Origin: Candidatus Taylorbacteria bacterium RIFCSPHIGHO2_02_FULL_43_32b
Lineage (GTDB): Bacteria; Patescibacteriota; Minisyncoccia; Phycocordibacterales; 2-02-FULL-43-11
NCBI GenBank assembly: GCA_001820955.1
Contig: MHRK01000019.1
Span: 1-54,594 of the forward strand
Length of the DNA: 54,594 nucleotides
Direction of reading: 5' to 3'
A model generated the notes under the pieces. The model ran no database searches. It was not told the DNA's origin and saw only the letters and a program-made list of their open reading frames with translations. The position numbers and the translations under genes were made by a program. Shown piece after piece: positions 6,158 through 51,998 of this stretch (positions within the stretch are counted from its first letter, which is position 1; each line of letters opens with the position of its first letter).

Positions 6158-6205
6158 AGCGTGATTATATCAAACGAAACGAATGTCTTATAATAAGATG
6201 TGCAT

Positions 6206-6976
6206 ATGAAATTACTTCAAAAGAAAAAAGCCGCGCTTTTTTTGCTTGTGATAATGGTCCTAATTTCTTCTATTTATATTTTTGCTTTAAGAGACAGAAG
6301 GCCAACAAGCGTCACCCTTACACCAACCTCACCGAATGATATTCCGGAACAGAAAAACATAGATTCGGACGGAGACGGTTTCGAAGATTGGGAAGAGGAA
6401 CTGAGAGGAACCGACCCGACAGTAAAGGACCCCCTGTCACAAATAAGTGGAAAAAGTCTTGTTAAAGATCGGGCGAACACGCCCCCAATCAATGCCCTAG
6501 CGCCAATCAATGACAGCGCCGAAGTCGTACCAAACACTAGGGGGGGTGATGCGCAAAACCCCTTACGAGTTATGGGAAATTCGGCAGCAACCATATTAAA
6601 AAATTTTGACTCTGTAGAGGAGGCCCGTCTTTTGAACCAATCTATTGAAACGTTGACACCGGAAATTTGGCAGGGATTAAAAAATATGGCCACGAAAAGA
6701 GCGGAAGTCGCCTCAAAACTAATCGACCTAAATACTAATTACAATGTCTCGGAACTCAAAAATTTCGCAGTAGCTCTGGACTCTCTCGCTGAAGCTATTA
6801 TTAAACTGATTGGAGACGGGAATAATTCAGATAAAATACCAGTCGAACGGTTTCAGGAATATGCACCGTACGCAATGAACTTCTCTGAAGCGTTTTTAAG
6901 TCTCTGTAAGAAATTTAAAAGCAGTAATGTAGTTTTTTCAGCGATAGAGCCAGGCGCAATATTTAATTTGCCATAA
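6206..6976 (+). CDS. Membrane-anchored protein with thrombospondin-type-3-like Ca-binding repeat
   Basis: N-terminal TM helix; DSDGDGFEDWEEELRGTDP acidic loop; ATG at 6206 (track start 6200 is GTG). Confidence 0.6.
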   Translation: MKLLQKKKAALFLLVIMVLISSIYIFALRDRRPTSVTLTPTSPNDIPEQKNIDSDGDGFEDWEEELRGTDPTVKDPLSQISGKSLVKDRANTPPINALAPINDSAEVVPNTRGGDAQNPLRVMGNSAATILKNFDSVEEARLLNQSIETLTPEIWQGLKNMATKRAEVASKLIDLNTNYNVSELKNFAVALDSLAEAIIKLIGDGNNSDKIPVERFQEYAPYAMNFSEAFLSLCKKFKSSNVVFSAIEPGAIFNLP

Positions 6977-16750: not shown

Positions 16751-19700
16751 ATGAGTTTATTAGACAAAATTTTTCCAAAGAAAGACGCCGGCGACTCTCC
16801 GCAAATCGCCTCTGTTTTGCCTGCCGATATATATGAGGCAGGGGCACTTGAACTCCGCGATGTTATCGCCCCATCTGCTCTCAAAGTCTCGCCCAAATCC
16901 ATAAACCTGGGAAATAAAATCGTTAGAACATATTTCGTCATATCCTATCCCCGCTTTCTGACCGAAGGCTGGTTTGCCCCGATAATCAACCTGGACAAAG
17001 TTTTTGATATTTCAATATTCATCCACCCCATTGATACGGCAAGGGTTCTCAAACAATTTCAGAAAAAGGTGGCCGAAGTCCAAAGTCAGATAAACGAAAG
17101 GGAAAAGAAAGGTTTTGTCAGAGACCCCATTCTCGAAACAGCTTACAACGACCTTGAAAAATTGAGAGACGACCTTATGCAGGCTCAAGAAAAAATGTTT
17201 GATGTCGGTCTTTACATGTCCATCTACGGAGAGTCAGACGAAGAGTTGGACAAAATTGAGACTGAGGTGAGATCCATACTCGAATCCAAGCTTGTTTATG
17301 TAAAACCGGCGCTTTTCCAGGAGGAACAGGCTTTCAGAAGCATCGCCCCTCTCGGCACGGACGAAATTATGGTACACACAAAGCTAAACTCCTCGCCACT
17401 TTCCAGCCTTTTTCCGTTCATTTCCTTCGATATGACTTCCGACAAAGGTATTCTTTACGGCATCAATCGGCACAATGCGAGTTTGGTGCTGTTCGACCGC
17501 TTTTCTCTCGAGAATTACAACAGCGTGACGCTTGCTCAATCTGGATCTGGAAAAAGCATAAAAGGCAACGAACCCGTCCTCATAAAACAAAATGGAAAAA
17601 TATCACTCCGACCAATAGGTAGTGTCGTCGACAAACTAATAAGAAAGAGGGGGGCAGTACAAATAGATGAAGAAATGGACGGGGTGATCGACCCAGGACT
17701 GGAAGTCTACAGCTTTGACAAAAATATGAAAGGCTCGTGGAGTAAAGTCAGTGTTGCCGCCAGGAAAATAGCCCCCAAGCAATTCTATCGTTTCAAAACA
17801 AAAAGCGGACGTGCTGTTGTAACGACTGGCGACCACAACATGTTGGTTTTACGAAACGGTGAAATTGTAGCCACAAAAAGTGATAATGTTGGGTTGGGAG
17901 AAGCCGTGCCCTTACCGAGATCTGTAGAAACAGGCGATAATTTCGACACACAAATTAATTTACTTGAACTTCTGAAAAACCGCCCAAATATATATGTTGC
18001 CGGCGCGGCAAAAGAAATAAAATTGCTTCAAAAAGAATACGAAGGAAAGATTGTTAACTCGCGATTTGATAAATATCTCTACAAGTACCACGCGGGGCGA
18101 AGAATACCGATTGCCTATTTCCTCAAACTCTTACGAGCATCAAACCACACACCACAAGCAGTGGAGATTAGCAAATGGCGTGTTATTTCATCGAGCGGTA
18201 CTGGCTCTCTCCCCGCCATTTTCCCAATTTCCAAGGAATTCATGAGGATCATCGGCTATATTATTTCCGAAGGTACCATTCGAAAAGAAGCTGTTATTAT
18301 CAGCAACACCGAAAAAGAAGTTTTGGACGACATTTCAGACTGCCTTAAAAAAATGGGGTTAACCTTCTTCAGAAATACCAAAAGCATCCGCGTGGGTTCT
18401 GTCGTTTTCGTAAACCTAATTCACGCTCTCGGTCTTTACAAAAAATCAGCCGGAAAATGTATCCCTGGGATCGCATGGGGGACATCTACACAAAGCATGG
18501 CGGCCTTGCTTTCATCATACTTTGAAGGTGACGGTGGAGTAGACGGACCGTCAATCACAGCGGTGTCCAAATCAAAACGTTTGATTTCTGAGCTGTCTTA
18601 TTTTTTGTTTTTCTTCGGCATCGTAGGCCGCGTTCATAAGAGGGAAAAAAAATACGTCAAAACTGGTAAAAAAAGAACTTTTTGGCATATTTCCATAAGC
18701 GGGCAATCGTCACTTAACAGTTTTGCTGAAAAAATTGGCTTTGTTTCTAAAAGAAAAAATGCGCTTCTAAGTTCTCTTCTGAACAAAAATGAGAATACAA
18801 ACGTGGACACCATACCAACACTTGGACAACTAGTTGAAGAATTGACATTAATTTTCCCATACGGGATAAACGGAACATCTAATTTTCAAAAAATTAAATG
18901 GTCTAGATTTGACCCCACTCCTAAATATCTCAGAAAGGCAACTGATGAACTGGAAGAGAAAATCGAGGAGTTCGTGCAACTTGGGCAAAGCATAAAAATA
19001 TTATCGCAATTGCCCAAACTTCACAACATCATAGCTATTGCCAAGGAAAACAAAGAAGTCAACACCAAATTATGGAATCTCCTCGGTTCGAGTTGGGCAT
19101 GGATGCGAAACGAGACTGGAGCACCTCGTGCAGAGAACGCTCTTGCTCTTATAGAAGCTGTAGGTCTCACCTCTCCTAGTGTATCCGCAATTAAAACCGC
19201 CGTGCACGACAATGCAATAGCTCTGCATTTGCCAATGAAACACATGGACGCATCTTTACGGAGCGCTATAACAATACGGCCAGAAAGCAACACTTCCTAT
19301 GAAATGCTCCAAAAAGCGGCCTCTTTTATATCGACAGCATACCAGGAATGGGAAAATAATCTGCCGCGTGTGAAGGAAATAATCTCCATTTTACGCACGC
19401 TTATCGAAAGCGAACTATTTTTTGACCCGATTACCAAAATCAACACCATAGAAAACAAAAGCGAAAAATATGTTTATGACCTGACGGTAGACAATGAAGT
19501 ATTCCTTGCCGGATACGGCGGGATGTTTGTTCATAATTCATACGCCACCAAGCTCGAAATATTGCGCTCTCTTATGTTCGATACGGAAGTTATCGTTATC
19601 GACCCCGAAAGGGAATACGAGCAGTTGGCTGAAGCCGCCGGCGGAAAATATTTCAACATTTCGCTTAATTCCGAACACCACATTAATCCCTTCGACCTTC

Positions 19701-20557
19701 CCGCCCCAAGAGAAGACGAGCAACCAAGTGACGTTCTACGCTCGCACATCATCAATTTAGTAGGATTGTTTCGTATAATGCTGGGCGGTCTTACTCCGGA
19801 AGAAGACGCTATCGTTGATCGCGCCATCACGGAAACATACGCCCTAAAAGACATTACTCCCGACGAAAATTTTGCCAATTCTGAACCGCCTCTCCTTTCG
19901 GATTTCGAGACAGTTTTGGCCGGAATGGAAGGGGCATCTTCTCTTCATGAGAGGCTGACGAAATACAGCCGCGGCACATGGTCAGGCTTTATCAACCAGC
20001 CGTCAAACATTTCAATCGACAGCAAATTCGTAGTCTTTTCAATCAGAGACATGGAAGATGAACTGAAAGCCGTGGCAACATATCTCATTACAAACCACAT
20101 CTGGGCGGCAATCCGAAAAACCTTAAAAAGACGCCTTCTCATCATCGATGAGGCCTGGTGGATGATGAAATCTGAAGACACGGCCTCATTCTTGGCGCGC
20201 ATGGTAAAGCGCGGAAGAAAGTATTATTTGGGAGTCGCAACCATCACCCAAGACGTTGATGATTTCTTGAAATCTCCTTACGGCACTCCGATTATTACAA
20301 ACTCGTCTATGCAGATATTGCTCAAACAGTCGCCCACAACAATCGATCGTCTGCAACAAATTTTCCAGCTAACAGACGAAGAAAAGTATCTGCTTCTTGA
20401 ATCGGCCATAGGGGAGGGGATATTCTTCGTCGGCCTCAAACACGTAGCCATAAAAATCATCGGCTCCTATACCGAAGATCAGATTATCACGTCCGACCCC
20501 CACCAACTGCTAACAATCAAAAAAGCCAAGGAAGAGTTGCGCGCGACAGAAGGATGA
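16751..20557 (+). CDS. virB4: VirB4/TrbE-type T4SS ATPase interrupted by an in-frame intein
   Basis: Gram-positive-type VirB4 N-domain; Walker A AQSGSGK|S-YATK split by the intein; Walker B LLIIDEAWWM; ITQDVDDF. Confidence 0.85.
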   Translation: MSLLDKIFPKKDAGDSPQIASVLPADIYEAGALELRDVIAPSALKVSPKSINLGNKIVRTYFVISYPRFLTEGWFAPIINLDKVFDISIFIHPIDTARVLKQFQKKVAEVQSQINEREKKGFVRDPILETAYNDLEKLRDDLMQAQEKMFDVGLYMSIYGESDEELDKIETEVRSILESKLVYVKPALFQEEQAFRSIAPLGTDEIMVHTKLNSSPLSSLFPFISFDMTSDKGILYGINRHNASLVLFDRFSLENYNSVTLAQSGSGKSIKGNEPVLIKQNGKISLRPIGSVVDKLIRKRGAVQIDEEMDGVIDPGLEVYSFDKNMKGSWSKVSVAARKIAPKQFYRFKTKSGRAVVTTGDHNMLVLRNGEIVATKSDNVGLGEAVPLPRSVETGDNFDTQINLLELLKNRPNIYVAGAAKEIKLLQKEYEGKIVNSRFDKYLYKYHAGRRIPIAYFLKLLRASNHTPQAVEISKWRVISSSGTGSLPAIFPISKEFMRIIGYIISEGTIRKEAVIISNTEKEVLDDISDCLKKMGLTFFRNTKSIRVGSVVFVNLIHALGLYKKSAGKCIPGIAWGTSTQSMAALLSSYFEGDGGVDGPSITAVSKSKRLISELSYFLFFFGIVGRVHKREKKYVKTGKKRTFWHISISGQSSLNSFAEKIGFVSKRKNALLSSLLNKNENTNVDTIPTLGQLVEELTLIFPYGINGTSNFQKIKWSRFDPTPKYLRKATDELEEKIEEFVQLGQSIKILSQLPKLHNIIAIAKENKEVNTKLWNLLGSSWAWMRNETGAPRAENALALIEAVGLTSPSVSAIKTAVHDNAIALHLPMKHMDASLRSAITIRPESNTSYEMLQKAASFISTAYQEWENNLPRVKEIISILRTLIESELFFDPITKINTIENKSEKYVYDLTVDNEVFLAGYGGMFVHNSYATKLEILRSLMFDTEVIVIDPEREYEQLAEAAGGKYFNISLNSEHHINPFDLPAPREDEQPSDVLRSHIINLVGLFRIMLGGLTPEEDAIVDRAITETYALKDITPDENFANSEPPLLSDFETVLAGMEGASSLHERLTKYSRGTWSGFINQPSNISIDSKFVVFSIRDMEDELKAVATYLITNHIWAAIRKTLKRRLLIIDEAWWMMKSEDTASFLARMVKRGRKYYLGVATITQDVDDFLKSPYGTPIITNSSMQILLKQSPTTIDRLQQIFQLTDEEKYLLLESAIGEGIFFVGLKHVAIKIIGSYTEDQIITSDPHQLLTIKKAKEELRATEG
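17555..19537 (+). mobile_element. Intein (661 aa) with LAGLIDADG homing endonuclease in the VirB4 Walker A motif
   Basis: Ser1 after GSGK; block B TTGDHNMLV; LAGLIDADG-like motifs FMRIIGYIISEGT and LLSSYFEGDGGV; ends GGMFVHN with +1 Ser. Splicing restores GSGKSYATK. Confidence 0.85.
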
Positions 20558-23179: not shown

Positions 23180-24445
23180 ATGGAAAATAAAAAAAGTAAA
23201 ATCATCATAACTGTCCTCGTAGTTGTTCTTTTTTTGATAGTGGGAGCTTTATTTTTCCTTTTTTTCATCAATCAGGAAGAGGCGGGTGATCCAGGTGACA
23301 TTTTCCCAGGCAGTGGTTCAGATTTGCCCGACATGAGTACTTCCACTACAAGTGGAGGAGGAAGATCCGGCACAACACAAGGTGGTGGCAATTTGATTTC
23401 TGGAATCCAAACACCTCACCCCCGCACGGGAACAGCTTTTAAACCAGTTCTGCGGCTCGTTACGAATAAGCCTGTGGGCGGGGCAGTAACTTTTGAAAGA
23501 AGTGGAAAAGTATTCATCCGATACATAGAAAGAGCTCAGGGCTTTACGTTCGAGACTAGCGCTGTAAATATCAATAACTTGAGACTTACTAATACAACCG
23601 TTCCGCAAATTTACTCCGCCTTATTTAACGCAAACGGGACTATCGCTATCCTTCAGTATCTGAAAGACGAATCTCTTATTCAAACTTTCGTTGGTAATCT
23701 TATTGAAAAAGGGGGAGGTCAGGGAGAATTAAGAGGTCAATTTTTAAAAACCGACATATCTACTTTGGCGCTTTCTCCACAAAAAGACAAAGTTTTTTAC
23801 TTGTTGGAAACAAATTCCGGTTCGTCAGGTGAATTAGTTTCCTTAAACAATACGCAAAGGTCTACTGAAATTTTCGAGTCTCCTTTGCGCCAGTGGCTCT
23901 CACAATGGCCAACAGAAAATAAAGTGCTTTTGTATTCGAAGCCATCTTACAATAGCGAGGGGGTTGCGCTGTTCGTAAATACAGTTAGCGCAGAGACTAC
24001 GACAATTCTCGGCGGGATTAAAGGTTTAACAGCCCTTGCCAGCCCGGAGGGAAATCACATTTTGTATTCCAATTCCTCGGACAAGACAATGTCAACCAGA
24101 ATTTATAGGCTAAATGATAACAGTAGTAAGACCATCAGCCTGACAACTTTACCGGAAAAATGCATTTGGAGCGACTCTTTACCAAACGTTTTTTACTGCG
24201 CCGTCCCATCCTCGATCCCTAAAGGAAATTATCCTGATCAATGGTACCAGGGAACTATTTCTTTCCGAGATGAAATGTGGAAGGTCAACGCGGAAACGGG
24301 CGACCTTGAATATCTGAGCCCGATAAGCGACCTGGCTGGCATGGACATTGATGCTGTAAACCTTTCAATAGACAAAAAAGACAAATCAATTACTTTCATG
24401 AACAAAAATGATCTTTCTCTTTGGACTCTCCAAATAGCCGAATAA
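23180..24445 (+). CDS. Membrane-anchored protein with probable beta-propeller (TolB/PD40-like) ectodomain
   Basis: N-terminal TM (IIITVLVVVLFLIVGALFFLFFI), Gly/Ser linker, repeated ...SP.G..ILYS... strands. ATG 23180. Confidence 0.5.
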   Translation: MENKKSKIIITVLVVVLFLIVGALFFLFFINQEEAGDPGDIFPGSGSDLPDMSTSTTSGGGRSGTTQGGGNLISGIQTPHPRTGTAFKPVLRLVTNKPVGGAVTFERSGKVFIRYIERAQGFTFETSAVNINNLRLTNTTVPQIYSALFNANGTIAILQYLKDESLIQTFVGNLIEKGGGQGELRGQFLKTDISTLALSPQKDKVFYLLETNSGSSGELVSLNNTQRSTEIFESPLRQWLSQWPTENKVLLYSKPSYNSEGVALFVNTVSAETTTILGGIKGLTALASPEGNHILYSNSSDKTMSTRIYRLNDNSSKTISLTTLPEKCIWSDSLPNVFYCAVPSSIPKGNYPDQWYQGTISFRDEMWKVNAETGDLEYLSPISDLAGMDIDAVNLSIDKKDKSITFMNKNDLSLWTLQIAE

Positions 24446-24603
24446 TTCTTGCCCCCACTGCGTCTTTGCCCATACCTCAAATCATAGACCTCCTAGCAAC
24501 TTTCATTTCTTTTTTATTCTTTCTTTTTTATTCCCAGTTGCAAACCCTCAAACCCCACGAACCCGATGGCCTCCAACCCTTTTGCCCATACCGACACCTC
24601 ACC

Positions 24604-24629
24604 ATAAATCTAACTATAGTTACGTTTAT
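24604..24629. repeat. Palindrome P1 (imperfect) upstream of the wHTH/Cas2-fold gene
   Basis: ATAAATCTAACTATAGTTACGTTTAT: 11/13 self-complementary half-sites, 24/26 identical to the P2 core, ends 34 nt before the ATG at 24663. Confidence 0.7.
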
Positions 24630-24662
24630 CGAGACCCCTATTAGAAAATTTAATTCAAAAGT

Positions 24663-25286
24663 ATGGGAAATATCGAATTTGAAGCCAAAAAAATCAGAAC
24701 CAGGCGAAGCATAAGAAAGGCAATTTTGGCTTCTATCGCGGTGGCTGGTTTTTTGAGTATAGCGGCCGTTGCGCCAAACGCCATGAGTATTCTTGAATTG
24801 GTAAGCGGTAAGAAAAAGAAAACCCCCAAATTTGCTATCACAAATTCTTTTAACAGACTTTTGGAAAGTGGGTATATCGAATTAAAAAATAAAGGAGGAC
24901 AAAAGAAAGTTGAAATAACCGGAAAAGGACGACTACTCCTAGCGAGAATTGGCGGGGGAAATTATGTACTTAAAAAGCCCTGGCGATGGGATAAACGTTG
25001 GAGAATAATCCTATTCGACATACCAGAAAATAGACGTCCGGTGAGGGTGAAACTCTGGAAAATGCTTCGCGCACTTCACTTTTACCCCATGCAAGACAGC
25101 GCGTGGGTTTATCCATACGACTGCGAAGACGTCATCAAACTCATAAAAACTGACCTGCACGTTAGTTTTGGAGTTATTTATATCATTGCGGAATCTATTG
25201 AGAACGACCGCAGGATTAGAGATTTTTTCGGACTCAATAAAAATTTGAAACACCTCAAAAAAATAGCTGCATTCATAACATCCTAA
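24663..25286 (+). CDS. PaaX-like protein: winged-helix domain plus Cas2-fold domain
   Basis: FNRLLESGYIELKNKGGQKKVEITGKGR (wHTH-like); WDKRWRIILFDIPENRRPVRVKLWKMLRALHFYPMQDSAWVYPYD matches the Cas2/PaaX-middle-domain pattern. Confidence 0.6.
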   Translation: MGNIEFEAKKIRTRRSIRKAILASIAVAGFLSIAAVAPNAMSILELVSGKKKKTPKFAITNSFNRLLESGYIELKNKGGQKKVEITGKGRLLLARIGGGNYVLKKPWRWDKRWRIILFDIPENRRPVRVKLWKMLRALHFYPMQDSAWVYPYDCEDVIKLIKTDLHVSFGVIYIIAESIENDRRIRDFFGLNKNLKHLKKIAAFITS

Positions 25287-25309
25287 AATGGAAGATCCCC
25301 CAAACTCTA

Positions 25310-25351
25310 GCCCTCAACATAAATGTAACTATAGTTACATTTATGTTGAGG
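25310..25351. repeat. Palindrome P2 (42-nt perfect)
   Basis: CCCTCAACATAAATGTAACTATAGTTACATTTATGTTGAGGG, perfectly self-complementary, 24 nt after the stop of the wHTH/Cas2-fold gene, followed by TGTTTTC. Confidence 0.85.
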
Positions 25352-25508
25352 GGTGTTTTCAAATCAAGCGGAAAAAAGTCTGCCGCAGAAAAAATCAACA
25401 TCGAGGAGTTAACTGATTAATTGAATTAATAGATTTCGTTACATTAACTCATGCAAAATACCTGAGTGAAAGAGTGTAGGATAAGAAACAATAGAAAAAT
25501 AAGTAGCT

Positions 25509-25991
25509 CTATATAGACTCTTTTGACTCAACGTATTTAATGACAACTCTTCGATATCTTCCTTCTCCTTTTGATTCTGTTTTTATATCCGGTATATTCT
25601 GCAACGCCGCGTGCACTATCATTCTCTCGTATGACGACATCGGTTCAAGCTCAATATCAACCTTAAAGGAACGCGCCCTCTCGCACATTATTTTAGCTTT
25701 ATTCTTGAGTTCCTCTTCCAGTTTTTCCTGATAATTGTTGACGTCTACAAAAAACCTGGTGGCTTCGCCGTCCTCTTCTTTACCTTTTCCCGCCATTTTT
25801 TTGACAACATGGTTAAAAGCAAGAAGATGCGCCCCTTTTGTGCCTATCAAAATGGCAGAGTCGTTGGTTTTTATAACGAATTTAGTTGAAGAAACCTCAT
25901 CTCCTTCGTTTATGTCAACCCCATCAAAAGGAACGTTCATAATCTTCAACATTTCCTCTATGATTTTTTTTACTTTTTGTGTGTCCGTCAT
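25509..25991 (-). CDS. jag: Jag/KhpB-like KH-R3H RNA-binding protein
   Basis: R3H-type C-terminus (EPMSSYERMIVHAALQ...RRVVI); located immediately downstream of yidC as in the rnpA-yidC-jag arrangement. Confidence 0.8.
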   Translation of the reverse strand: MTDTQKVKKIIEEMLKIMNVPFDGVDINEGDEVSSTKFVIKTNDSAILIGTKGAHLLAFNHVVKKMAGKGKEEDGEATRFFVDVNNYQEKLEEELKNKAKIMCERARSFKVDIELEPMSSYERMIVHAALQNIPDIKTESKGEGRYRRVVIKYVESKESI

Positions 25992-34357: not shown

Positions 34358-34392
34358 AAAAAATACTCTCGGTTTGCCGAGAGTATTTTTTA
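34358..34392 (+). terminator. Rho-independent terminator after tyrS (bidirectional shape)
   Basis: A-run, stem ATACTCTCGG (34364-34373) / CCGAGAGTAT (34378-34387), loop TTTG, T-run. Confidence 0.75.
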
Positions 34393-35427: not shown

Positions 35428-35739
35428 GTGTAAAATGCAAAAATCAAAATGTAAAATTTATTGGAAGCGGGGAGAATGGCTACATAATAAATAGTGCGCC
35501 CGGTGGGGCGCTCATATCCAACCCGCCTGACGGCGAGGCAGGCAAAGTTTTCCCGGTGCCTCGCCTAATACCCCGCCGAGGTAATCCGAGGGTACCCCTT
35601 AGGGCGGGGATATGGACGAGGCAAATTTTATTGGGAGCGGCCAGAGGACTCTACGTTCGGCATGCGGATATTAACGATAAAATAAGATTTTAAAATTTTG
35701 CATTGTCATTTTGCACTTTGATATTTAAATTTTGCATTA
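35428..35739. mobile_element. AAAATG-type IR pair enclosing non-coding GC-rich cargo (gene-less cassette)
   Basis: Left GTGTAAAATGCAAAAATCAAAATGTAAAATTT (35428-35459); right 35691-35739 reverse-complements to TAATGCAAAATTTAAATATCAAAGTGCAAAATGACAATGCAAAATTTTA. No ORF over 20 codons between them. Confidence 0.55.
35457..35667. repeat. GC-rich dispersed structured repeat (copy c: one full unit plus the 5' module of a second)
   Basis: Unit 35457-35632 ends GGGCGGGGATATGGACGAGGCAAATTTTATT, followed directly by TTGGGAGCGGCCAGAGGACTC. Several GC hairpins, e.g. GGCGAGGC...GCCTCGCC. Confidence 0.7.
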
Positions 35740-36264
35740 TTCAGCATTGGTTATGACGTCCTGTACCTCATCACAGTTTTCAAGTTCATCGACAATTTTT
35801 TCGAGAAGAGCCAAATCTTCCTCTGAAAGTTCGACTGTGGAGTTTGGCACAAGTTGGCCGTTTTCTTTTTTGAATGCCCATGAGGCACTTCCAGGAGAGG
35901 CCAAGGCTATATCATGTTTTCCAAGAGCGATTTTAACTTCTTGCGCAGCCTTGTTTCTGTTATCTGTAAGCGCTTCGATAATTATTGCTACGCCTCCTGG
36001 CCCGTAGGCTTCGTATGTTATGTTTTCCATAACCGTACCCGCTTCCTTTGATTTTTTTATGGCTCGCTCGATGTTGTCGTTTGGCATGTTCTCCTTTCGG
36101 GCTCTCTCTATTACGGCCTTTAACCCCGGGGCTTCTCTGTTTCCTGCGGCTTTTTTGGCCTCGATGGTGATAAGCTTGGCGTACCTAGAAAACGCCTTAC
36201 TCTTTTGCGAGTCAGTTTTGCCCTTGCGCTCTTTTATTTGTTTCCATTTATTATGTCCTGACAT
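35737..36264 (-). CDS. yebC: YebC/PmpR-family transcriptional regulator
   Basis: MSGHNKWKQIKERKGKTDSQKSKAFSRYAKLI... canonical N-terminus. True ATG at 36264, so the track ORF is extended 33 codons upstream. Confidence 0.9.
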   Translation of the reverse strand: MSGHNKWKQIKERKGKTDSQKSKAFSRYAKLITIEAKKAAGNREAPGLKAVIERARKENMPNDNIERAIKKSKEAGTVMENITYEAYGPGGVAIIIEALTDNRNKAAQEVKIALGKHDIALASPGSASWAFKKENGQLVPNSTVELSEEDLALLEKIVDELENCDEVQDVITNAE

Positions 36265-36315
36265 AGTTGTATCAATGCCAATATAATAATACTTACGAGG
36301 TTTGAAAACAGGCAC

Positions 36316-36345
36316 TTGACATATAGTACATTTTTGATATATAAT
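36316..36345 (+). promoter_or_regulatory. Near-consensus sigma70-type promoter
   Basis: TTGACA (36316-36321), 18-nt spacer, TATAAT (36340-36345). Confidence 0.6.
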
Positions 36346-36371
36346 GTGTGGCGGTACTTTCAAAAACTGAG

Positions 36372-36420
36372 TTTGTCACAGCAGAAAGCGGCTTATTTGG
36401 CCACTTTCTGCTGTGACAAA
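36372..36420 (+). promoter_or_regulatory. Perfect 17-bp stem hairpin in the 5' leader
   Basis: TTTGTCACAGCAGAAAG (36372-36388) / CTTTCTGCTGTGACAAA (36404-36420), 15-nt loop, no T-run. Confidence 0.6.
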
Positions 36421-37422: not shown

Positions 37423-37450
37423 TTGACCTAATCTAATTTGAGCATAGAAT
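37423..37450 (+). promoter_or_regulatory. Sigma70-type promoter with no ORF behind it
   Basis: TTGACC (37423-37428), 16-nt spacer, TAGAAT (37445-37450). A second GGTTGACCTA lies at 37380-37389. Confidence 0.4.
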
Positions 37451-37552
37451 AAGTTTGTTGCTTGTGGAAGTAGGGTTCAATTCCCTCACTGTGCCGCAAC
37501 GGTAAATGTCGTCTCTTTGGCGATTTAGTCCGGTCTTCAAGTGATAAGTTCT

Positions 37553-37643
37553 AATCAACGAATCCATACGAATCTTAGCGAATAGTTTTAGCGAATACAT
37601 TTGTTAAGGTCATTCGCAAAATTCGTACATTTGTTGACTTGCA
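37553..37643. repeat. Empty CGAAT-type arm pair (cassette arms back to back, no cargo)
   Basis: Left AATCAACGAATCCATACGAATCTTAGCGAATAG... (from 37553). Right 37610-37643 reverse-complements to TGCAAGTCAACAAATGTACGAATTTTGCGAATGA. Same family as 4750-4797 and cassette B. Confidence 0.55.
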
Positions 37644-37763: not shown

Positions 37764-39629
37764 ATGCGACGCACATTAATTATAGTTTTTTTGTTATCAG
37801 CTTTTCCTTTGTCTCTTTTTGCGACAGAGGAGCCTGTTTCGATAAGATTTAGGGTGGAGACGCATGAAGGTTCTCTTTTTAACGGGGCAATAAGCGTTTC
37901 GGCTTGCCCCGACAGTGATACTGCCTCAACGACCAGTGTAAATGCTTTTTGCGCTGTCGAAGAAGTGGCCGCGACAAATGGTTGGGATATCAAGAAAACC
38001 TGGTATTCATTTGGCGCCAGTCTTGATTCATTAAGCAATTACAATGCTGATTTTGCGAATAACCGTTTCTGGCTTTATTTTATAAATGACGAGCCGGGGA
38101 ATGCGGCGCTTAATGCCTATTTAGTTAAACCCGGGGACGATTTGCTTCTTGTTTATGGCGTATCGCCGCTTAAATTAGCCGCGGCAGAAAACAAATTGAA
38201 CGTTGGAGCAACAACAACCGTTTCTTTGTCTAGTTTTGATTTTACAGCCTGGGCGTGGGTGCCGGCCTTTCCATCAAAACTAGTTGTCGACGGGGTTTTA
38301 TATTCCGAAAGCACGGACGGAAGTTTTGGTTTTTCACCTTTGGGTAGTCGCGCCTATAACCTTATAGGAAGAAAAGAAGGTTTTTTGGATAGTAACGCGG
38401 TAAGCGTTACCGGATTATCTATCGAACCAAACCGAGGGGAGGTTTTGGGGGCAACGGTTTCCGAGTCTGTTACGAGCGGTGGATGTTGGTTGTGTTTTTA
38501 TGACGAACCAAAAAGGGAAGAGTTTGACCTGCCTAAAGCTTTGGAATTTTTGGAAAAACATCAGTCGGAGGACGGTTCTTTTGGTTCACCGATGTTATCA
38601 GATTGGGCGGCCATAGCTCTTTCGTCACACTCGACTACTTCGCCGTCCGCCCTCCTTTTAAAAAAACATTTACTCTTAGATAAAATCACTTCAAATATTT
38701 TGACCGATTACGAAAGGAGAGTGATGGCCATGTTGGCGCTCGGCTTTGATCCCCGGCAGGAGCCAGGGGAATATATTTCATACATCAAAAATTCCTTTAA
38801 AGACGGTCAATTTGGCGATCCATCACTCATTAACGATGACATTTTTGCTGTTCTTGTTTTAAGAAAAGCCGGTTTTTTAGAGAACGATGAACAAATAGAA
38901 AAAACAGTGAGAAATATAATTGCCTCTCAATCGTCGAATGGCTCTTGGATAAGTGCCGACTTAACATCCGCCGCGCTCCAAGCTCTTTTACTTACCCCCA
39001 ATTTACCCAATGTTTCGTCTTCGATAATTAGAGCTCAGGAGTATTTGCGCTCCGTTCAATTTGATGACGGCGGGTACGGGGATGTTTTTGCGACCAGTTG
39101 GGTCACTCTGGCGGTCGCGGCTTCCGGGCTCGATCCCTCTCTTTGGGTTAAGAACGGAAAGAGTCCTTTAGATTATTTGAATAGCGAACAAAGGATTGAT
39201 GGGGGGATGCGAACCGATTCAAACGATCGTGATTCCAGAATTTGGGCAACGTCCTATGCTATCTCTGCCGCATCGAAAAAGTCATGGTCCGAGATTTTAG
39301 GGGAGTGGGAAATTGCGATTGAAGACACAAAAGCCGAGGAATCGAAAAACATCGCATCCTCGACGAATGATTTTATTCAAACCGAGTCTAGTGGAGTGGC
39401 CACGATAGTGATTAGCAATCCCGCCCCAGTGCCCGCAATAGACTCACGCAAGGTGAAGTCAGAAGGGACAGAAGCTGTACGGGTCGAAGCTACGCCTTTA
39501 ACCCAAGTGAACCTTGCGGCAGTCGCGGTTAGTCCTGTATCGAGTGAGAGCGAAAATTTTTTGGTCAGGTTAACAAAAAAAGCGACGTATCAACTCGCCG
39601 CAATTTTGTTTTGGTTCATAACTGATTAA
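37764..39629 (+). CDS. Secreted/anchored protein: DUF4430-like N-domain plus prenyltransferase/squalene-oxidase-like alpha-toroid repeats
   Basis: Signal peptide; N-domain ending FWLYFINDEPGN..VKPGDDLLLVYG; repeats LEKHQSEDGSFG, ASQSSNGSW, SVQFDDGGYG, EQRIDGGM; C-terminal hydrophobic helix. Confidence 0.6.
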   Translation: MRRTLIIVFLLSAFPLSLFATEEPVSIRFRVETHEGSLFNGAISVSACPDSDTASTTSVNAFCAVEEVAATNGWDIKKTWYSFGASLDSLSNYNADFANNRFWLYFINDEPGNAALNAYLVKPGDDLLLVYGVSPLKLAAAENKLNVGATTTVSLSSFDFTAWAWVPAFPSKLVVDGVLYSESTDGSFGFSPLGSRAYNLIGRKEGFLDSNAVSVTGLSIEPNRGEVLGATVSESVTSGGCWLCFYDEPKREEFDLPKALEFLEKHQSEDGSFGSPMLSDWAAIALSSHSTTSPSALLLKKHLLLDKITSNILTDYERRVMAMLALGFDPRQEPGEYISYIKNSFKDGQFGDPSLINDDIFAVLVLRKAGFLENDEQIEKTVRNIIASQSSNGSWISADLTSAALQALLLTPNLPNVSSSIIRAQEYLRSVQFDDGGYGDVFATSWVTLAVAASGLDPSLWVKNGKSPLDYLNSEQRIDGGMRTDSNDRDSRIWATSYAISAASKKSWSEILGEWEIAIEDTKAEESKNIASSTNDFIQTESSGVATIVISNPAPVPAIDSRKVKSEGTEAVRVEATPLTQVNLAAVAVSPVSSESENFLVRLTKKATYQLAAILFWFITD

Positions 39630-44528: not shown

Positions 44529-44544
44529 ACCCTAACAATTCACA

Positions 44545-44576
44545 GCGCATCGGAGTTTATACCGATGCGCTTTTCT
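44545..44576 (+). terminator. Rho-independent terminator
   Basis: GCGCATCGG (44545-44553) / CCGATGCGC (44562-44570), 8-nt loop, TTTT. Confidence 0.8.
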
Positions 44577-44597: not shown

Positions 44598-44641
44598 CCA
44601 TGCAATATAATTGTAACCATAGTTACAATTATATTGCATGG
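44598..44641. repeat. Palindrome P3 (20-bp perfect arms, 4-nt centre)
   Basis: CCATGCAATATAATTGTAAC CATA GTTACAATTATATTGCATGG. The 26-nt core is 23/26 identical to the P2 core. Followed by GGTGTTCGG. Confidence 0.85.
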
Positions 44642-44767
44642 GGTGTTCGGCGATATATCTGCGGACAATACTTTTTGTGCGCATTTGCCTGCGAGGTGTT
44701 AGTGCGGCTGAAAATAATTGCGGGGCTTGAATTTGGTAACCGTAAGTCCATCTGGTACTATCTTTTC

Positions 44768-45220
44768 ATGGACGTCGTCACAAAAACAATTGAAGAAACA
44801 AAGAAAGTTGCCGAAAAATTTTTGGCGGAGCTTTTGTCGCGGAAAGACGAGGCTACTCTTGTCGCGTTGTCGGGAGATTTGGGTTCCGGCAAGACGACAT
44901 TTGTTCAGCAGTGCGCAAAAATTTTTGGAATAGAAAGTAAAGTTACGAGCCCGACTTTTGTAATAATGAAAAAATATCCCATCCCCGAGTTTTCTAAACG
45001 CTCCAATCTAAACGCTCTACGTTTTTTTGTGCACATTGATGCCTATCGTCTAAAAAGCGGGGAAGAGTTGCTGAAACTAAACTGGCAGGAGCTAATTTCC
45101 GATCCTCAAAACTTGATTTTTATAGAATGGCCCGAGAATGTTATGAGTGTGATGACACAAAATGCTCTGCAGATTAGTTTTAAATCGTTAGATGAGACCA
45201 AAAGACGAATCGTTCTTTAA
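44768..45220 (+). CDS. tsaE: tRNA t6A37 biosynthesis protein TsaE
   Basis: GDLGSGKTTFVQ P-loop, about 150 aa. ATG 44768 (the track ORF starts inside palindrome P3). Confidence 0.8.
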   Translation: MDVVTKTIEETKKVAEKFLAELLSRKDEATLVALSGDLGSGKTTFVQQCAKIFGIESKVTSPTFVIMKKYPIPEFSKRSNLNALRFFVHIDAYRLKSGEELLKLNWQELISDPQNLIFIEWPENVMSVMTQNALQISFKSLDETKRRIVL

Positions 45221-46141: not shown

Positions 46142-46161
46142 CAAGGAGCAAATGGTGGAGT

Positions 46162-46190
46162 GCGTCGGAATAATTTCCGGCGCCTTTTTT
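46162..46190 (+). terminator. Rho-independent terminator
   Basis: 9-bp stem GCGTCGGAA / TTCCGGCGC (one G-U), loop TAAT, T6 run 46185-46190. Confidence 0.7.
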
Positions 46191-46424
46191 ATAACATGTA
46201 AAAACCTCCGGCTTTAGCAGATTTGTACATTTTAAGCGCAGTGTTTAGACAATCACCTTGGGTCGAATTAAAGAACCAAAGGTGATTTTAACCATTAACA
46301 GACGTCTGTATCAGCAGTCCCATGCCACATGGGTATGTGATTACTTTTACATTGTTTTACGCGCCCAAGGAAGGGTAGCAGAGGGCTGTTTTTCCTTACC
46401 TGTGCAGAAAAACAGCAAAATCTT

Positions 46425-46466
46425 TCACTCATTTTAACATAGCTATAGCTATGTTAAAATGAGTGA
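46425..46466. repeat. Palindrome P4 (42-nt perfect)
   Basis: TCACTCATTTTAACATAGCTATAGCTATGTTAAAATGAGTGA. Shares the central CTATAG with P1/P2. Followed by a G-run and GGTGTTCGC. Confidence 0.8.
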
Positions 46467-46513
46467 GTGGAGGGGGGCTAGGTGTTCGCTGAAGGCACTT
46501 AATACCATTGACG

Positions 46514-46664
46514 TTTATTGGAATGGCCAGAAGACTCTGCCGAAGCGTACCTCGGCGAGTACACTCGCAATCAGGTACTCCTAGTACCCCTTGCCCGCCC
46601 GCCATCGCTAGCCGCTCAGGCGTTGCGGGCGGGGGGCGGGGATATGGACGAGACAAATTTTATT
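46514..46664. repeat. GC-rich dispersed structured repeat (copy d)
   Basis: Starts TTTATTGGAATGGCCAGAAGACTC, ends GGGGCGGGGATATGGACGAGACAAATTTTATT. Internal hairpins GCCGA..TCGGC, GGTACT..AGTACC, CCCGCCCGC..GCGGGCGGG. Confidence 0.7.
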
Positions 46665-46894
46665 AAAACTTTTGAAATCACGGTTTGTCATTTTTATAAT
46701 TTGCGTACTTTGTTATGTTACTCAACTTGGACGTTCGGCCATGTACGGTAACAAAAAATTGTAAAGAAAAGCGGCGAATGGCGATGCGAGATAAACGCAA
46801 GTGTTTTTCGCTCTGCAAAAAACTTTTGCAGTAAGTCGTAAGGGTTGGAGGTTGTATAGGTTGTTTGTGCGGTTTATTGTCGTACAATTGAAAG

Positions 46895-51965: not shown

Positions 51966-51998
51966 AAAAAACGCAGACATAAATCGTCTGCGTTTTGT
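51966..51998 (-). terminator. Rho-independent terminator after pyrC
   Basis: ACGCAGAC (51971-51978) / GTCTGCGT (51986-51993), flanked by an A-run and a T-run. Confidence 0.7.

Follow-up and report, generated by a model that had tools for sequence, protein, structure and literature searches.

What kind of element is formed when a lone regulator-like gene stands between two long palindromes of the same family? The question is raised by the 54,594-nt contig MHRK01000019.1 of Candidatus Taylorbacteria bacterium RIFCSPHIGHO2_02_FULL_43_32b (the whole stretch is called the window here), a chromosomal contig near oriC of a member of the Paceibacteria, within the Candidate Phyla Radiation (CPR), that originates from groundwater and has also been recovered from many metagenomes. 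A gene for a 207-aa protein lies between two of four palindromes (P1 to P4), which a first-pass annotation made from the sequence alone had read either as operators of the encoded protein or as the hairpin ends of a small mobile unit. Comparison with related loci revealed that the palindrome bracket is a hallmark of the PaaX-like gene family to which this gene belongs, far wider than that annotation could see. As judged from these sequence comparisons, the palindromes are probably double-stranded DNA operators of the encoded PaaX-like dimer, with autoregulation at P1. The unit is laid out as follows.

24594-24634, no strand: P1, an imperfect palindrome (core 24604-24629, extended to 24594-24634) with its dyad between 24616 and 24617; proposed autoregulatory operator
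24649-24654, plus strand: TTTAAT, putative -10 element read from the sequence, 8 nt ahead of the ATG and at a distance of 35 nt from the P1 centre
24663-25286, plus strand: gene for the 207-aa minimal PaaX-like protein (Pfam PaaX_M, AlphaFold2 model, Foldseek)
25311-25352, no strand: P2, a perfect 42-nt palindrome between convergent genes; proposed second operator, maybe also a hairpin, roadblock or terminator

The family sample consisted of 80 related loci fetched from metagenomes and several more obtained via exact protein look-up, and a bracket was scored where a CTATAG or CGRYCG hexamer occurred within 110 nt upstream of the ATG and within -45 to +110 nt of the stop codon, with arm pairing ignored. 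Among the 73 loci with enough flank, the centre hexamer was present upstream in 62, downstream in 65 and on both sides in 60, compared to a chance expectation from background density of about 0.16 (upstream) and 0.21 (downstream) motif occurrences per search interval and ~3% of loci with both. This is the locus comparison in relatives that the first-pass annotation had suggested, and it returned a palindrome-gene-palindrome arrangement around the homologues. Away from these positions the centre motif is no denser in the loci than usual (0.0013 per nt). Matching repeats in the upstream and downstream flanks (score of at least 14) were found for 36 of 64 PaaX-like genes and for 16 of 480 other open reading frames (ORFs), and most of the latter, including the strongest, are further PaaX-like paralogues or mis-ended copies. 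The centres fall into classes of CGRYCG (39), CTATAG (24), CACCTG (2) and G-rich sequences (2), and the arm sequences vary between genomes and between paralogues of one genome while being alike in both copies around one gene. Distant homologues occur in unrelated gene neighbourhoods, and the bracket travels with the gene. No description of such a bracket in CPR bacteria was found in the literature. On a related CPR contig, a small TrpR/YerC-like regulator gene (L083:5836-6144) is flanked by a palindrome family of its own (near 6175-6208 and 6288-6331; centre AGTTAACT), and regulator genes that stand between their cognate palindromes may be a more widespread pattern in these CPR genomes.

The first-pass annotation had assigned the gene a winged helix and a Cas2-like fold, and both were recovered. 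The protein matches Pfam PaaX_M (PF20803, 'central Cas2-like domain') at 4e-17, scoring 62.5 bits where the cut-off is 24, with an additional weak winged-helix match, and its AlphaFold2 model (mean predicted local distance difference test score 80) has two parts, a helical bundle with a wing (residues 56-97) and a domain of ferredoxin-like fold (residues 113-189). The recognition helix spans about residues 56-69 and the wing residues 72-85 of the N-terminal winged helix. Foldseek placed E. coli PaaX (8a39, E 1.3e-4) as the top PDB match for this model, followed by many Cas2 structures; a PDB search with the single sequence of the Cas2-like domain returned noise only. The 207-aa protein ends without the C-terminal effector domain of PaaX (no PaaX_C match), reaches 21.6 bits against a cut-off of 264.55 bits for the NCBIfam PaaX equivalog TIGR02277, and has no paa genes among its neighbours (a type IV secretion system (T4SS)-like cluster, jag-yidC-rnpA-rpmH and dnaA). 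Because effector domain, equivalog score and paa context all fail, the protein is not a PaaX orthologue and is a member of a minimal PaaX-like subfamily. That family holds 629 clusters at 50% identity with E<=1e-30 and 3360 with E<=1e-10; named members belong to Kaiserbacteria, Vogelbacteria and other Paceibacteria, and some database records call relatives 'Cas2'. Four acidic residues are invariant in the family (D119, E122, D153 and E155), and the Cas2-like domain keeps the Asp of a Cas2-type FDI and an invariant PYDCE motif. Neither the Pfam and NCBIfam scans nor the closest structures of the protein contained a transposase domain or an HUH/Y1 fold, and the window holds no CRISPR repeat array and no Cas domain among its ORFs scanned against Pfam. 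Two other ideas about the protein were abandoned. A phage origin was dropped, as no PaaX-like relative was found in viral contigs and PADLOC gave weak winged-helix matches only, and an N-terminal transmembrane anchor was rejected, as relatives are charged in that segment and it is modelled as helices of the winged-helix bundle.

What the palindromes look like across the family was determined by aligning the sites on their dyad with no selection for arm pairing. The mirror symmetry reaches 0.8-0.94 in the zone 10-18 nt away from the dyad, is 0.5-0.8 closer in (4-9 nt) and no better than random past about 19 nt, and the three bases on either side of the dyad are nearly invariant. A weak family-wide half-site of about T-W-M-A-C-W-A-W-W lies at positions -18 to -10, and the 5' arm is poor in G. 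Two half-sites, separated by about 28 bp, and the conserved centre make up a site of 36-44 bp, and the symmetry profile fits this composition better than it fits a uniform stem. In E. coli, PaaX binds the operator TGATTC-N27-GAATCA and from there represses its own promoter by keeping RNA polymerase off it (PMC9493321). Because that operator is 39 bp long and has widely spaced half-sites, the size and layout of the palindromes match the target of a PaaX-type dimer.

The upstream copy is also in register with a promoter. At no fewer than 20 of 77 non-redundant loci a TATAAT-like hexamer (at most one mismatch) ends 6-7 nt before the ATG, which implies leaderless mRNAs. The palindrome centre lies upstream of the hexamer midpoint in one of two registers, by about 8 nt or by 32-36 nt, and from this geometry one half-site would cover the -35 position in both. 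Single asymmetric deviations number 67 in upstream copies and 42 in downstream copies, upstream copies being less perfect because their right arm contains the -10 in the first register. Most upstream copies could not be transcribed as whole hairpins because of this overlap with the -35 or the -10. For the window gene, TTTAAT is the putative -10 in the second register (+32 to +36), with a leaderless or near-leaderless mRNA, and the right half-site of P1 is proposed to overlap the -35 region of that promoter. The arrangement is as expected of an autoregulatory operator. None of the reads from three metatranscriptomes of a related study fell on the locus.

The downstream copy starts within a few tens of nucleotides of the stop codon and sometimes overlaps it. 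The 10 nt after the family downstream copies contain a mean of 3.5 T, compared to 2.7 from base composition, and there is no U-tract. P2 is flagged by a simple terminator scan and has a partial tail (GTGTTTTC), while P3 and P4 have no U-tract tails and P1 lies 5' of its gene. The gene that comes next is convergent at 25 of 53 loci and co-directional at 28, and a common target gene after the 3' palindrome was rejected, as the genes that follow bear no relation to one another (RNase J-like, prfB, gap, rnhA, thyA, trpS, dnaE). Because of the missing U-tract and the unrelated next genes, the downstream copy can be tied to the PaaX-like gene and not to a neighbouring promoter. The ordinary terminators of the window are short GC stems between A and T runs (e.g., 84-110, 34358-34391, 44542-44573 and 51966-51998), and P2 to P4 are a different kind of object. 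That the palindromes would prove to be plain terminators, an outcome that the first-pass annotation had named as fatal to its proposal, is not what the family reveals.

The remaining palindromes of the window and the short flanking motifs are listed here.

44598-44641, no strand: P3, a 44-nt palindrome that stands alone between tsaE and a canonical terminator (44542-44573); proposed additional operator
44702-45220: tsaE, with a GTG start, downstream of P3
46425-46466, no strand: P4, a solo perfect 42-nt palindrome with the centre GCTATAGC, upstream of polA; a looser family member
24591-24603, minus strand: GGTGAGGTGTC, at P1 and facing away from the gene
25352-25358, plus strand: GGTGTTT flank, abutting P2
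44642-44648: GGTGTTC flank, abutting P3
46481-46487: GGTGTTC flank, 15 nt beyond P4

Most of what had been said about these sites survived recounting. P1 is present upstream of the gene as an imperfect palindrome at 24604-24629, and an extended form (24599-24634) is 81% self-complementary; the core identities of 24/26 between P1 and P2 and 23/26 between P2 and P3 are both correct. P2 is a perfect 42-nt palindrome that starts 24 nt past the stop codon, as described, with its coordinates corrected by one (25311-25352 instead of 25310-25351). P3 has the 20-bp perfect arms reported for it, with one central mismatch (CCATAG) and a TATAAT in each arm, and it does follow a canonical terminator (44542-44573 plus a T-run). 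P4 was rightly called a further perfect 42-nt palindrome with the same centre, but the rest of the family core is not common to it (TAGCTATAGCTA versus TAACTATAGTTA); its TCA..TAA half-site lies 1 bp nearer the dyad, and at a shift of -1 it scores 12/18 half-site matches, the same score as P3. Similarly, the GGTGTT(T/C) said to follow P2, P3 and P4 directly abuts the first two and is 15 nt away from P4. Over the whole window the GGTGTTY heptamer shows no enrichment (22 found, 14.4 expected), and the flank was seen only in this genome, with no family-wide conservation. The 16-nt core TGTAACYATAGTTACA, allowing up to three mismatches, occurs in the window only at P1, P2 and P3 (6 strand-matches versus 0.40 expected; 0 of 100 shuffles reach 6), and by our own estimate ~1e-8 perfect 42-mer palindromes would be expected by chance in 54.6 kb. 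As RNA, the hairpins of P2, P3 and P4 have predicted energies of -29 to -30.5 kcal/mol (P2, -30.5 kcal/mol). Across nine contigs P1 and P2 are without strain variation, with one single-nucleotide polymorphism only, at 25290.

Two side observations belong with these sites. P4 and a GC-rich stretch (about 46590-46645) are held in a 750-nt interval without a convincing ORF (46142-46894), in which one assembly calls a 77-aa gene and nothing reaches an Rfam gathering score; the interval could hold a non-coding RNA. DPANN archaea (Micrarchaeota, Anstonellales, 'ainarchaeum') are strikingly rich in a 16-20 bp palindrome, (W)ATGTAACTATAGTTACAT(W), of which a genome has several, and among the matches listed DPANN contribute about two thirds of at least 120 matches to WWTGTAACYATAGTTACAWW (L096-L215). 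The DPANN ATGTAACTATAGTTACAT sites have AT-rich flanks, no long arms and no PaaX-like gene nearby, and this palindrome probably serves those archaea as a transcription-factor or promoter site.

Further copies of the sites were searched for in about 600 kb of flanking DNA with locus-specific half-sites plus the centre motif, using mismatched half-site models as control. Only a handful of extra sites was found: in L050, in L027, at the second unit of L037, and P3 and P4 of the window. A full-length similarity search added a solo site with 92% identity in L056. The L027 solo lies 75 nt upstream of a gene. The regulon, if there is one, is small.

Taken together, the comparative data (the bracket across the family, half-sites and centre over ~40 bp, and the register of -10 and ATG) support the operator and autoregulation role that had been proposed for the palindromes, and from them we infer binding by the encoded protein. 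Each winged helix would read one half-site 10-18 bp from the dyad, with the Cas2-like dimer core lying over the conserved central hexamer, which is CTATAG here and CGRYCG in many relatives. Protein bound at P1, over the -35 region, would repress its own, probably leaderless, transcript. P2 would serve as the second site of the same gene unit, where it would most likely halt transcription by a protein roadblock and/or a 19-21-bp RNA hairpin, in both directions between convergent genes, and it may also anchor a repression loop with P1. P3, before tsaE, and P4 would be further sites of a small regulon. The operator reading is favoured because the fold and homology of the protein are nearest to E. 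coli PaaX, an autorepressor with a long operator, and because paralogues carry their own arm sequences, the bracket is conserved and the register with the promoter is fixed.

PaaX with its long inverted-repeat operator and autorepression is functionally the closest known system. As in the protein described here, PaaX of E. coli and Pseudomonas has a winged helix followed by a Cas2-like dimerisation domain; the palindromes here resemble the long inverted-repeat operator of PaaX in their widely spaced half-sites, and repression of the own promoter, known for PaaX (PMC9493321), would apply to the family as well. The family protein differs in its 207-aa length without the C-terminal effector (phenylacetyl-CoA) domain, in the absence of nearby paa genes, and in sites that have a conserved central hexamer and a second copy after the stop codon of the gene. 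In alignment, the FDI..QDSVW motifs, which we take to be Cas2 motifs, are kept here and lost in PaaX. The CRISPR protein Cas2 has the ferredoxin-like fold in common with this domain, which is here fused to a winged helix and encoded by a lone gene in many genomes, with no array in the window. For a repressor gene between two operator sets, phage lambda provides the precedent. The cI gene lies between its own operator sets OR and OL, and the distal set, which has no promoter of the repressor gene under its control, takes part in autoregulation via looping. The lambda operators are 17 bp, tripartite and 2.4 kb apart, and looping there needs CI octamers, whereas nothing in the present data shows oligomerisation past the dimer.

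Several observations weigh against the operator reading. It accounts only in part for why the 3' copy is conserved, why the arms change symmetrically in concert, why a GGTGTT flank recurs and why the unit is distributed like a cassette. There is no promoter for the downstream copy to control at about half of the loci, and 'operator' does not account for its conservation. The -10 of the window gene itself is weak and lacks the conserved A at position 2. No residue tracks the centre class (CTATAG versus CGRYCG) in a clean association; the best candidate, D145, is invariant in the TATA class and N, D or K in the other. Extra sites are rare, and the solos of L056 and L050 follow unrelated genes or stand between convergent ones, some of them at gene 3' ends. 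When both copies of the unit were compared position by position at 42 loci, which were chosen for having palindromes and for which symmetry is somewhat inflated, 543 positions were conserved, 109 had a single asymmetric difference and 44 differed with both palindromes still symmetric. Fewer than one such compensated difference is expected from independent changes, and a symmetric change in the spacer is not by itself required of a dimer on duplex DNA. The same is seen at P3. Contig L225 is 96.4% identical to the window over 2.8 kb, and its P3 (CCATGCAATATATTTGTAACTATAGTTACAAATATATTGCATGG) departs from that of the window by a mirror-image double substitution and a change that perfects the centre. 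Because P3 stands just after a terminator and in front of tsaE, hairpin selection at the level of the transcript is no obvious cause there. Concerted arm change may come from hairpin selection on transcribed copies or from template-switch correction in quasi-palindromes, and at P3 either the DNA itself would have to form a hairpin or cruciform or template switching would be at work. Template switching within quasi-palindromes, which copies changes from arm to arm, is a known mutational process. It should be noted that on L225 the gene upstream of tsaE (L225:128-922) is called with 264 aa and not 273 aa, and that the left end of this contig diverges from the window before 43842; this difference next to P3 is local rearrangement or assembly variation.

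In the window the gene order runs from the T4SS-like cluster through the P1-gene-P2 unit to the convergent jag-yidC-rnpA-rpmH and then dnaA-dnaN, and the relevant boundaries are given below.

24446-25508: 1063-nt interval between the T4SS-cluster gene (which ends at 24445) and jag, containing the P1-gene-P2 cassette
25509-25991, minus strand: jag/khpB, convergent with the gene at 24663-25286, with P2 between the two

Three contigs (L226, L227 and L228), reached via relatives of the 429-aa protein encoded just upstream, have a T4SS cluster gene, convergent jag-yidC-rnpA and dnaA-dnaN without a PaaX-like gene there, and their gaps are 8, 13 and 124 nt compared to 1063 nt in the window. Because their flanking proteins are only about 40% identical to those of the window, the event is old, and either gain or loss of the cassette would account for it. 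The ends of the cassette (24594-24629 at P1 and 25319-25354) form a 36-nt inverted repeat that is 89% complementary, each end being itself palindromic. No direct repeat abuts the ends as a target-site duplication would, there are no multiple identical copies (one unit per locus, except one tandem duplicate), and genomes with 80-88% DNA identity retain the unit at the same locus. The asymmetric (RY) centres of the two ends have the same orientation at 13 loci and are inverted at 7, and L019 and L091 combine, within the same outer arms, CTATAG as the upstream centre with CGRYCG as the downstream one. Mixed orientation and mixed centres fit recognition by a symmetric dimer better than they fit oriented transposon ends. 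In L037 the whole unit is duplicated in tandem (936-1645 and 1969-2679, 86% DNA identity, with proteins highly similar by eye); the two units are separated by a small ORF and a canonical terminator, and the single-copy loci L049, L062 and L067 share the left flank. Seen over long evolutionary times, the unit has the character of a discrete cassette, given its absence in syntenic relatives, the unrelated neighbourhoods of homologues and the L037 duplicate. The mobile unit that the first-pass annotation offered as its other possibility finds limited support: the missing cassette in three syntenic relatives and the 36-nt inverted pair speak for it, while the lack of a target duplication, a transposase and identical multi-copies, the mixed orientation and the constancy of the locus in close relatives do not. 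The spacer that separates P1 from the T4SS-cluster gene contains TTTGCCCATACC twice as an exact 12-nt direct repeat, at 24465-24476 and 24581-24592, 116 nt apart, its second copy ending 1 nt short of the extended P1 arm (24594), and 24506-24533 is a perfect tandem duplication of TTTCTTTTTTATTC; these repeats may be scars of cassette arrival.

Architecturally, the closest known system is a gene for a REP-associated tyrosine transposase (RAYT) flanked by repetitive extragenic palindromic (REP) sequences. RAYT genes are single-copy, mostly vertically inherited and flanked by REPs of their own family, often right after the stop codon, with palindromy kept by complementary mutations; REP sequences co-vary with the lineage of the RAYT protein, and solo REPs are intergenic (PMC2817692). 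The unit here shares these traits, among them a gene between two cognate palindromes and symmetry kept by compensatory change. In a REP/RAYT-like ('REPtron'-like) or selfish cassette the palindromes would act as single-stranded hairpins or cruciforms, which the Cas2-like domain would recognise and might also cut, with the bracketed gene as master copy, P3 and P4 as dispersed solos, and relocation of the cassette as a unit. The concerted arm changes, the perfect long palindromes of P2 and P4 and the 20-bp perfect arms of P3 are in line with such a cassette, as are a GGTGTT flank that is asymmetric and faces outward at P1 and P2, the invariant acidic residues (D119, E122, D153, E155), the position of some solos between convergent genes, the tandem duplicate of L037, and the absence from three syntenic relatives together with neighbourhoods that are not conserved in distant relatives. 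The explanation is nonetheless unlikely. The RAYT proteins are IS200/IS605-type HUH tyrosine transposases, whereas the protein here has no HUH/Y1 or other known transposase fold and its nearest structure is a repressor. RAYT flanking copies are always inverted, in contrast to the 13 same and 7 inverted pairs counted here, no GTAG-type head is conserved across the PaaX-like family, and the copy number in the flanks is very low, with few solos and not hundreds. The upstream copy is integrated with, and locked to, a promoter, pairing is strongest in the outer arm and weak near the loop, unlike a uniformly selected stem, and the family is absent from viral contigs. Insertion sequences and miniature inverted-repeat transposable elements share with this unit the presence or absence at an otherwise conserved site, and differ from it in their target duplication, transposase and near-identical multiple copies; the unit stays at the same locus in close relatives. 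It would be a long shot that the winged-helix/Cas2-like protein underlies a REPtron-like element in which it recognises, and perhaps nicks via the Cas2-type acidic site, the extruded hairpins of its own palindromes.

Could the palindromes act as RNA without a protein, or serve a different protein? Structural RNA hairpins, as terminators or 3'-end stabilisers of mRNA (P1 being a 5' element) whose copies resemble one another by local duplication, would explain why P2 stands between convergent genes and is caught by a terminator scan, why the hairpins are so stable (-29 to -30.5 kcal/mol) and why compensatory changes preserve the stems. This account is quite improbable, as intrinsic terminators carry a U-tract right after a GC-rich stem, which the family downstream copies do not (3.5 T in the 10 nt after them versus 2.7), and the canonical terminators of the same genomes, one of which already precedes P3, have short GC stems with A and T runs. 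Upstream copies that overlap the -35 or -10 are mostly not transcribable as a whole, the centre and half-sites are conserved in a sequence-specific manner, and the association with one gene family is far too specific. The least credible of the alternatives, with very little in its favour, is that the sites belong to another, unlinked factor (a restriction-modification, nucleoid or partition protein) that recognises the CTATAG/CGRYCG centres. The centres (CTRYAG, CGRYCG) resemble type II restriction sites, the window borders on dnaA, a region in which many bacteria have clusters of parS-like sites, and the same 16-bp core is frequent in Micrarchaeota without this gene nearby; but the bracket accompanies the gene into unrelated contexts, the arms are specific to genome and paralogue while the bracket stays with the gene, and the background of the centre motif elsewhere is ordinary. 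With neither an integrase, a telomere resolvase or an array nor a ParB context, and with a bracket that stays with its gene, an integron attC, a protelomerase site, a CRISPR repeat and parS were dropped as candidates.

Other features of the window stand apart from the palindromes. The VirB4/TraG-like ATPase gene of the T4SS-like cluster (16751-20557) has an intein with a LAGLIDADG homing-endonuclease domain (Pfam, precomputed for an identical gene in L001). An AdoCbl (cobalamin) riboswitch (Rfam RF01482, 53 bits) at 37439-37590 lies upstream of a 621-aa ORF (37764-39629) that has weak prenyltransferase/DUF4430-like matches. A long hairpin at 36372-36420 (20-bp stem with one mismatch, 7-nt loop, -36.5 kcal/mol) is located just upstream of the start of a minus-strand YebC/TACO1-family gene (35737-36363) and has no sequence kinship to P1-P4.

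Gene regulation in the CPR/Patescibacteria is essentially uncharted and almost none of these organisms are cultured. With a cognate ~40-bp site that can be read for each genome from the flanks of the gene itself, this large, lineage-typical family offers hundreds of natural candidate protein/operator pairs with co-varying half-sites, which suit specificity studies, the design of synthetic orthogonal repressors and the prediction of small regulons in uncultivated organisms. The second site after the stop codon and the concerted arms go beyond textbook autoregulation and may point to roadblock termination, looping or a hairpin-level activity of the Cas2-like domain. Should the REPtron-like explanation be true, its activity would maintain the symmetry of the arms, give rise to solo copies such as P3 and P4 and allow the cassette to pass from one intergenic site to another, and the family would represent a previously unknown enzymatic class of palindrome-associated element in the CPR and a non-CRISPR job for a Cas2-like domain.

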